IMG/VR virus record: IMGVR_UViG_3300025316_001101
DNA length: 64,000 bases
Strand: one strand, 5' to 3'
From: a virus
Taxonomy: Duplodnaviria; Caudoviricetes
Shown: piece after piece, positions 9,763 to 9,997 of the stretch
How positions within the stretch are numbered: the first letter of the stretch is position 1
Layout of the letters: every line of letters begins with the position of its first letter
Notes under the pieces: generated by a model
The model's database searches: none
Told to the model about the DNA's origin: nothing
The model's input: the letters and a program-made list of their open reading frames with translations, nothing else
Translations under genes and position numbers: made by a program

Positions 9763-9997
9763 AAAGTCCTCGGCCGACAAGAAGCGTAGAGACGCCATTC
9801 CCTTTCGGGAAGTTATAGCCTTCACGCACGGACCCTTTCAGGTTACCGCCGTTCGAAACGCAATTAGATCTCCCCTTCGAGAGATCACCGGATTCAGTCG
9901 AAACTTACCGGCTTGTGCTGTCGCTTGCAGGTCGCCCTGTTTTGCTACCTTAGGACCATCATTGATGTAGTCCCCACTACATTCGGCCGAGGACTTT
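9763..9997 (-). ncRNA. structured ncRNA E1 carrying 23S rRNA H69-H71-like segments
   Basis: Perfect 15-bp terminal stem (9763-9777/9983-9997); GAAA/GAAG-capped hairpins with G-U pairs favouring the minus strand; GGUCCUAAGGUAGC, CGACCUGCA, GGUAAGUUUCGAC, GAAUGGCGU segments. Confidence 0.8.

Follow-up and report, generated by a model that had tools for sequence, protein, structure and literature searches.

The window analysed here, a stretch of 64,000 nucleotides (nt), corresponds to bases 163025-227024, reverse strand, of a virus record of 259 kb in IMG/VR (IMGVR_UViG_3300025316_001101, Caudoviricetes). CheckV estimates the record to be 50% complete, which at this length indicates a phage of several hundred kb. 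The window carries 30-33 tRNA genes, every one on the minus strand, and near-identical DNA was found in metagenomes from lakes and fresh water that belong to five studies. Within this tRNA island lies E1 (9763-9997, minus strand), which its folding statistics, a covariance model of its relatives and a homology-guided fold identify as a Y RNA-like RNA composed of a Ro60 handle and a module resembling domain IV of 23S rRNA. Ro60 is an RNA quality-control protein and a human autoantigen. Positions refer to the window unless assigned to the genome, 23S rRNA is numbered as in E. coli, and all parts of E1 are on the minus strand.

E1 is preceded by a promoter-like site (10002-10029, minus strand; -35 TTGCAA, 16-nt spacer, TG-extended -10 TATATT), which was found by consensus scan only and would place the start near 9995. 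The terminal UUU of the closing stem is followed by a U-rich tail, UUAUUGG (9755-9762), a possible 3' end as judged from the letters; the terminator scan was silent at this place because the closing stem is long-range. The upstream neighbor encodes a DUF6934 protein. Downstream there is a 75-aa open reading frame (ORF; 9747-9520) without Pfam or PHROG match, so that no ribosomal protein is indicated, and then an ORF (8786-9448, minus strand) with a large mechanosensitive channel (MscL) domain (E = 1.4e-17). These neighbors give no hint of function. At gathering score Rfam recognized only tRNAs in the whole window.

A sequence-only reading of this DNA had described E1 as a scrambled mosaic of words from the H69-H71 region of 23S rRNA, contained in a folded RNA. 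The structural part of this description was borne out. Positions 9997-9983 form a perfect 15-bp stem with 9777-9763, hairpins with GCGA and GAAA tetraloops of the GNRA type are present, and the minus strand behaves as a discrete folded non-coding RNA, with a minimum free energy of about -95 kcal/mol (-95.0 to -95.6; z = -4.5). A fold guided by homology to the relatives described below has -88.9 kcal/mol and lies only about 6 kcal/mol above the minimum.

Bacterial Y RNAs are characterized by paired ends and by the motif GNCGAAN0-1G near the 5' end (PMC4201824). E1 has both: the terminal stem comprises 15 perfect base pairs, and the motif is present as GCCGAAUG at 9987-9980, where it would make the proposed contact with Ro60 (Rsr). 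In fact, the complete handle of bacterial Y RNAs, consisting of the closing stem, GNCGAAN0-1G, a second stem, UACAU and the 3' motif YUUG-UC, can be traced in E1. The 5' strand of stem 1 occupies 9983-9997, and the equivalent stem covaries in relatives. In stem 2, GUGGGGAC (9970-9977) forms 8 bp with GUCUCUAC at 9793-9786, and the equivalent helix shows compensatory changes in both subfamilies (see below). UACAU (9965-9969) is kept in all family members; its CAU can pair with AUG at 9798-9796 to form the 3-bp stem 3. The CUUG of the 3' motif (9778-9781) is common to E2 (see below), to six rod-like RNAs and to the Rfam consensus of both YrlA and YrlB.

The whole record was searched for the shared 5' motif combined with matching closing stems. 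Eight elements with such an 'open' handle were found, all on one strand: E1, E2 and six rod-like RNAs of 60-106 nt, the latter clustered at genome positions 129090-130058, just downstream of a Ro60 gene. The gene is a 569-aa ORF (genome 127091-128800) in which a TROVE domain (28 bits) and a vWA_Ro60 domain (64 bits) are recognized; solved Ro60 and Rsr chains align to it over the full length. The first rod-like RNA begins about 290 nt past the end of this ORF, with a handle-bearing tRNA-like element between them. Rfam YrlB and YrlA models align to three of the rod-like RNAs along the whole handle (closing stem, GAAUGC, second stem, UACAU, and UUGUC before the 3' strand of the stem), with scores of 29.0, 25.4 and 17.6 bits, which are below the thresholds of 69 and 97 bits. 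The phage thus encodes Ro60, an adjoining battery of Y RNA-like RNAs and, inside the tRNA island, E1 and E2.

E2 (19912-20212, minus strand) lies directly after tRNA-Ala(UGC) and carries the same handle, with a copy of the GTPase-associated centre of 23S rRNA as cargo. It is identical to 23S 1039-1088 in 44 of 50 positions (local alignment score 70, shuffle maximum 31) and contains an additional 10-mer from 1102-1111. One genome therefore holds two Ro60-handle RNAs with cargo from different functional centres of 23S rRNA. E1 and E2 have a common scaffold; that the scaffold is the Ro60-binding handle, and that the genome has a Ro60 gene, had been missed in the sequence-only reading.

The handle also occurs in a 'closed' form (CCUUG, stem-loop, GAAUG, hairpin, ACAU) within tRNA-shaped genes. 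The gene at genome 128961-129089 scores 43.8 bits as a tRNA and has a 61-nt insert; further ones lie at about 129250-129430, 129520-129690 and 161930-162030. The insertion site is either the anticodon loop or the stretch between the D arm and the anticodon arm. These genes resemble an inside-out YrlA, whose ends lie at the acceptor stem and whose Ro60 stem carries a cap. A weak YrlA match (32.8 bits, threshold 69) at about 162253-162382 of the genome, adjacent to tRNA genes, possibly represents a further tRNA-like Y RNA. The presence of the handle inside tRNA genes and of its 'open' form elsewhere had prompted the idea of a self-splicing or permuted intron-exon arrangement. It was dropped because the Rfam YrlA/YrlB alignments and the Ro60 gene explain the motif. 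RtcB was not found in the 259-kb record, which at an estimated completeness of 50% is no evidence of absence, and Rfam models of self-cleaving ribozyme classes gave no match.

Relatives of E1 were sought in public collections with a pattern in which the 14-mer GGUCCUAAGGUAGC stands no more than 25 nt after the 3' end of the 5' handle. Elements with the full handle were found three times in IMG/VR, many times in metagenomes and several times in genomes, the carriers among the latter being Labilithrix, Polyangiaceae, Sandaracinus, other Myxococcota and one cyanobacterium. An initial IMG/VR pattern, in which the 14-mer was joined to CGACCUGCA, had given no match; the sequence of the H71-analogue stem is not conserved. 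A covariance model (R1) was built from 26 relatives with E1 left out. R1 recovers E1 (9990-9902) with 55.7 bits (E about 1e-15) as the sole match in 259 kb; for comparison, scores range from 47 to 94 bits among training members and from 20 to 27 bits among true pieces of 23S. In a narrow search, R1 loci numbered 28 in metagenomes, 11 in GTDB genomes and three in IMG/VR, about 40 in all. The model also separates the family from most of the Bacteroidales pattern matches, which lie in a carboxyltransferase-like coding gene, and from a few matches that are true 23S genes with inserts. Three loci (L091, L047 and L170, from metagenomes and a Candidatus Taylorbacteria metagenome-assembled genome) are such 23S genes, with a foreign insert next to the H69-H71 region.

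E1 follows the order of parts typical of the family: the 5' handle, directly followed by (A)CGGUCCUAAGGUAGCGA, a GNRA-capped hairpin and a YAGCGA strand. All 19 of the 19 E1-type loci scanned with Rfam are in tRNA arrays, where they sit after or between tRNA genes with unrelated neighbors, and no Rfam family covers the element. In one contig, 4.8 kb separate a canonical YrlA (70.1 bits, above threshold) from an E1-type RNA; both belong to the same array and strand. BLAST searches of the GenBank phage collection with E1 and with the 10 kb around it yielded no match.

The E1-type RNAs co-occur with Ro60. A vWA_Ro60 gene is present in five of five Myxococcota genomes with an E1-type RNA, compared to two of 14 control genomes, and counting all tested genomes with E1-type RNAs, Ro60 was found in seven of seven. 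One of these carriers is a 183-kb phage (G001, 95% complete) whose Ro60 of 528 aa is 40% identical to the protein of the phage studied here; it has the same Y handle within about 360 nt after its Ro60 gene (G001:176665-176689). The E1-type RNA of G001 is at the other end of the linear record, about 7 kb from that handle if the genome is circularly permuted.

All seven 23S-like words reported for E1 by the sequence-only reading were found, on the minus strand and with the 23S positions given: GGUCCUAAGGUAGC (9957-9944; 1921-1934), CGACCUGCA (9934-9926; 1958-1966), GGUAAGUU (9909-9902; 1949-1956, 12/13 on extension), AACGGCGG (9853-9846; 1900-1907), CUAUAAC (9818-9812; 1914-1920 by exact word), GAAUGGCGU (9800-9792; 1968-1976) and CUUGUCGG (9781-9774; 1942-1949). 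Two further words, AAUGAUGG (1977-1984) and CCGGUAA (1894-1900), were detected in addition. Exact words of at least 7 nt in E1 cover 76 of the 100 nt of E. coli 23S 1885-1984, whereas the best-window cover in 2000 dinucleotide shuffles of E1 was 32.4 ± 5.5 with a maximum of 53; the other 235-nt tiles of the window reach at most 46, except for a tile overlapping E1. Comparison with dinucleotide shuffles, the check suggested together with the claim, thus confirms that the clustering is far beyond chance. With the handle masked the module still covers 60 nt (shuffle mean 5.8; 0/2000), and with the family-conserved block masked as well it covers 29 nt (mean 4.1; 2/2000, for a window fixed post hoc). 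Some of the leftover words outside the handle and the conserved block may be due to chance. Taken as one collinear local alignment to 23S rRNA, the match of E1 is not significant alone (score 33, shuffle maximum 35), and the Rfam LSU model (RF02541) gave no match to E1 at E <= 10. The likeness of E1 to 23S rRNA is real and not collinear.

The relatives show how the words are to be understood. In the Myxococcota-type members the handle runs straight into CCGUAACUAUAACGGUCCUAAGGUAGCGA, 29 consecutive bases identical to 23S 1908-1936, which are the intact top of the H69 hairpin (loop AACUAUA) plus the junction strand. There follow a hairpin GUCGG-GCGA-CCGAC, equivalent to H71 with a GNRA loop, and then CUAGCGAUGGC (23S: CUGCACGAAUGGC). 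The best-preserved relatives are collinear with 23S 1908-1977 (local score 60, shuffle maximum 40). A structural model of this subfamily, comprising handle stems 1 and 2, the H69 hairpin and the analogues of H71, H67 and the base of H68, was evaluated on 12 sequences. Of its cells 92.4% are paired and 16 pairs have compensatory changes; with the partner strands slid against each other, pairing was 50% or less. The H67 analogue of this type (GCAN with NUGC) is lengthened by a variable arm. In the phage-type members the strand after the H68-like arm reads GGCCG(U/A)AAC, similar to 23S 1906-1914, and pairs with CGGUC on the 5' side, by which pairing an analogue of the H69 stem closes the rRNA-like domain. 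The corresponding model (E1 plus four relatives) has 88.4% of cells paired and 17 pairs with compensatory changes, again with 50% or less for slid partners.

Comparison of the two orders explains most of the apparent scrambling. The order in 23S rRNA is 5' strand of H67, H68, H69, junction, H71 and 3' strand of H67, and in E1-type RNAs it is junction, H71, 3' strand of H67, cap, 5' strand of H67, H68 and 5' strand of H69. The E1 module is for the most part a circularly permuted and trimmed H67-H71 core, in which H67 is capped and the ends are at H69. According to the model of the phage-type members, the Y handle would leave the module where the H69 loop would sit. The notion of a scrambled mosaic is thus correct inasmuch as the order differs from that of 23S rRNA, but the arrangement is mainly a circular permutation with truncated helices, to which E1 adds two hairpins of its own. 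Likewise, the claim that E1 carries sequence and helices of 23S domain IV around H69-H71 beyond chance stands. Two of the seven words are parts of the handle and not of an rRNA module: CUUGUCGG belongs to the handle common to all Yrl RNAs, while GAAUGGCGU runs across the 3' strands of both stem 3 and stem 2 of the handle. Two assignments within the module had to be changed. The alignment of relatives places CUAUAAC at the 5' strand and loop start of H69 (GGCCGUAAC, 1906-1914) instead of 1914-1920, and AACGGCGG, taken previously for an H69 flank, is located in the H68-like arm.

Starting from the handle, the parts of the module in E1 are as follows. The H69-stem analogue is made by UGGUC (9954-9958, the 3' strand in terms of H69) and GGCUA (9820-9816); 92% of the cells are paired in the five sequences, a U-A pair of E1 is C-G in relatives, and the natural lake variant G9819A converts a G-U to an A-U pair. 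GGUCCUAAGGUAGC (9944-9957), identical to the 3' strand of H69 and the H69/H70 junction, is the invariant core of the family. The H71 analogue is the hairpin CAGG-GCGA-CCUG with a GNRA loop (9928-9939), and the relatives' GUCGG-GCGA-CCGAC at the same position covaries. It is followed by CAAGCGACAGCA (9916-9927), which alignments identify as the counterpart of the relatives' CUAGCGAUGGCA and of 23S 1962-1975. For the H67 analogue, GCA (9918-9916) is assigned to UGC (9862-9860), a pairing based in E1 on homology only; the H67-like helix covaries in the Myxococcota-type subfamily. Between the two H67 strands lie the E1-specific hairpins. One (9887-9912), absent from the relatives, holds GGUAAGUUUCGAC, a word resembling the H71 loop, and its pairing remains possible in the natural variant A9905G. 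The other (9867-9886; 8 bp, GAAG loop, base-pair probability 1.0) is part of the variable cap that links the strands and differs in length among relatives. The truncated H68 analogue (9821-9857), supported by compensatory changes in the consensus fold, is based on UUC/GAA (9857-9855 with 9823-9821), contains AACGGCGG and has a stem capped by UGAAAG. In one relative (L089) UUCCCGGUGCC stands where 23S 1834-1844 has UGCCCGGUGCC (10/11 identical). A UCCC-GAAA-GGGA hairpin (9799-9810; base-pair probability 0.99) leads from the H69-stem analogue to handle stem 3, and relatives have a short GNRA-type hairpin in its place.

RNAalifold suggested a different pairing of GGAYU with GGUCC and a GC/GC closure of the H68 arm. 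These alternatives were set aside in favor of stem 2 and of the H67 and H69 analogues, because stem 2 covaries and the two analogues follow 23S homology; where the GC pairs are invariant, this preference is unproven. Contigs of four DNA sequencing runs on lake and freshwater samples, which come from three studies, show only two substitutions in E1, both compatible with the model and too few for covariation within E1 to be assessed. In the same contigs the spacer between E1 and the next ORF has three substitutions and a 14-nt insertion.

Some resemblance to 23S rRNA was seen in the handle itself. The 3' motif (U)CCUUGUCGG(G), together with the 5' CCGA-AUG, resembles H71 and its flanks (1940-1950 and 1957-1972), for example at 9774-9781 and at 19916-19926, and E2 has a run of 11 bases in common with it. 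The resemblance may be coincidental, or it may hint that the Ro60 handle itself is like that rRNA hairpin.

Several tRNA genes of the window, all on the minus strand, have unusual features. Two (16289-16362 and 43227-43301) have a CUA anticodon of the amber suppressor type, labeled Pyl by ARAGORN. Three genes of 95-119 nt (176-270, 16932-17026 and 43660-43778) are far over normal length, which suggests inserts or introns; the match of the last one is weak (32 bits). To two tRNA-like genes (38689-38763 and 38839-38913), located on either side of tRNA-Val(AAC), ARAGORN assigned a two-base anticodon, 'ca'.

The closest known RNAs are YrlA and YrlB (Rfam RF02553 and RF02565; Chen et al. 2014, PMC4201824). 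Like E1, they have paired ends forming a long stem and GNCGAAN0-1G at the 5' side, and their Rfam consensus includes the second stem, UACAU and the 3' YUUG-UC. They likewise occur in genomes with Ro60, often amid tRNA genes, and they are modular, with a handle and an effector domain mimicking one of the RNAs used in translation. What distinguishes E1 is the effector, which in YrlA is tRNA-like and in YrlB a simple rod, whereas in E1 it is a roughly 140-nt copy (9958-9816) of the core of 23S domain IV. Rfam 15 has no family for E1, and the open-access full texts searched present Y RNAs only as tRNA-like, with no mention of an rRNA-mimicking one. E1 can be described as a Y RNA with an rRNA-mimicking effector domain.

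In the ribosome the H67-H71 region of domain IV forms the central intersubunit bridges B2a, B2b and B3, and it is contacted by RRF, HflX-type splitting factors, RluD and RlmH. E1 shares with it the identical 14-nt junction strand, and E1-type analogues of the H67, H68-base and H69 stems carry compensatory changes. It differs from the rRNA in its permuted connectivity, the truncation of H68 and of the H71 loop, the absence of 1936-1944 and the loss of the H69 loop.

A precedent for a phage-borne system is the Thermus phage phiLo. This phage encodes a Ro60 and two Y-like RNAs recognized by a CGAA motif, Yrl1 and Yrl2, which are reported to assemble with host PNPase (PMC12135203); unlike E1, these RNAs adjoin the Ro60 gene, and a keyword search of the paper gave no rRNA-like cargo. 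The principle of a non-ribosomal RNA that reproduces local 23S structure for a ligand is familiar from ribosomal-protein operon leaders, for instance that of L10, which imitates the GTPase-associated centre. Such leaders are cis-acting and located upstream of the gene of their ligand, whereas E1 is a separate RNA, bears a Ro60 handle and has no ribosomal-protein gene nearby.

Taken together, these observations make it likely that E1 is a Yrl RNA in which a Ro60 handle is combined with a 23S domain IV-like effector module. The handle formed by the 5' and 3' ends of E1 very probably binds the Ro60 of the phage, a ring protein. Known bacterial Y RNAs need Ro60 for their accumulation. The module, with capped H67, shortened H68, the H69 stem, the H69/H70 junction strand and H71 with its GNRA loop, would present an rRNA surface. 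It could bring a Ro60 particle, possibly together with a host exonuclease such as PNPase, to a reader of this part of the 50S subunit, or compete for that reader, candidate ligands being the 30S interface, a recycling or splitting factor, or an rRNA-modifying or assembly enzyme. The specific role of the module as adaptor or bait is a tentative proposal, slightly short of an even chance, and is modeled on known Y RNAs. Ro60 binds these through the handle, and they link it to partner proteins such as PNPase and control access to its cavity; those of bacteria imitate tRNA and are modified by tRNA enzymes (PMC4201824, PMC12135203). In YrlA the modifying enzymes are TruB and DusA.

Several facts weigh against this interpretation. 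The handle, the family membership, the rRNA-like helices with their covariation and the co-occurrence with Ro60 are directly supported, but the adaptor role is argued by analogy. E1 is 88 kb from the Ro60 gene, which Y RNA genes usually adjoin, with other RNAs bearing the same handle located directly downstream of the gene. It reaches neither of the Rfam YrlA and YrlB models, no Y RNA model matching at E <= 10 between 9400 and 10400, and it lacks the tRNA-like domain that defines YrlA, with no tRNA or tRNA-like match in E1. The inner fold, namely the H67 and H69-stem analogues, relies on homology among five sequences, and ViennaRNA prefers alternative inner pairings by about 6 kcal/mol. Phage-type members have lost the H69 loop or have it interrupted; since this loop makes the best-known functional contacts of the region, the module cannot imitate all functions of H69.

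Among the other explanations, the one nearest to the adaptor is that E1 acts as a gate or pseudo-substrate: bound through its handle, the module would cover the cavity and the basic surface of Ro60, mimic 23S rRNA and block or tune the action of Ro60 on rRNA, either in 23S maturation or in rRNA decay. Rsr has a role in starvation-induced rRNA decay (summarised in PMC4201824), which speaks for this possibility, and gate and adaptor draw equal support from the handle, the presence of a Ro60 gene and the rRNA-like helices. No sequence feature separates gating from tethering, and the variety of cargo on one handle (rods, tRNA-like RNAs, domain IV, GTPase centre) fits different baits better, so we regard a gate as unlikely. 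Less likely still, and clearly improbable in our view, is a free-standing rRNA decoy of the kind that the sequence-only reading had in mind, which would soak up an enzyme, factor or toxin aimed at H69-H71, such as RluD, RlmH, RRF or a nuclease, independently of Ro60 and so protect or perturb host ribosomes. The rRNA likeness is real and conserved, and the intact H69 hairpin of the Myxococcota-type relatives would suit a decoy. A Y RNA handle, however, is always present in the family, all seven tested genomes with E1-type RNAs have Ro60, and E1 itself has lost the H69 loop. Moreover, the family has not kept AAAUUCCUU (1936-1944), the segment cut by the known H70-specific toxins of the MazF-mt6 type, and this weakens the idea of a MazF decoy.

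The remaining two explanations are poorly supported. E1 could be a cis-acting 5' untranslated region that regulates the 75-codon ORF at 9747-9520 in the manner of the ribosomal-protein leaders, a known principle, and a GGAG and an ATG do follow about 10 nt past the U-rich tail. Yet the product of the ORF resembles no ribosomal protein, the relatives sit among tRNA genes with unrelated neighbors, E1 has a promoter-like site as well as a stem and U-run of its own, and natural populations vary most in the spacer to the ORF; this makes a leader highly improbable. We give hardly any credence to the view that E1 is a decaying fragment of captured rDNA without a function of its own. It would account for short words identical to 23S rRNA, but the family extends over phages, Myxococcota and a cyanobacterium with compensatory base changes, E1 is near-invariant across the lake and freshwater runs compared, and its arrangement is an ordered permutation closed by helices and not a random shuffle.

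If the adaptor interpretation is extended to phages and some bacteria in general, a single Ro60 handle would display a kit of ribosome look-alike baits, comprising tRNA shapes, the domain IV core (E1) and the GTPase centre (E2), by which Ro60 and an exonuclease would be docked onto ligands of translation; these could be the 30S interface, RRF, EF-G, HflX, stalk proteins or rRNA-modifying enzymes. Such a kit is conceivable but doubtful. If it were true, the phage could reprogramme or dismantle host ribosomes during infection.

The RNAs described here form an uncatalogued family of about 40 loci that genome annotation currently misses, and they show that in huge phages several RNAs of this kind accompany the tRNA arrays. 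They tie Ro60 more directly to the ribosome. They also provide a concrete entry to the question of what the effector domains of Y RNAs bind: the cargo copies well-studied pieces of 23S rRNA, and because the factors that may recognize H67-H71 or the GTPase centre are known, the question becomes approachable.

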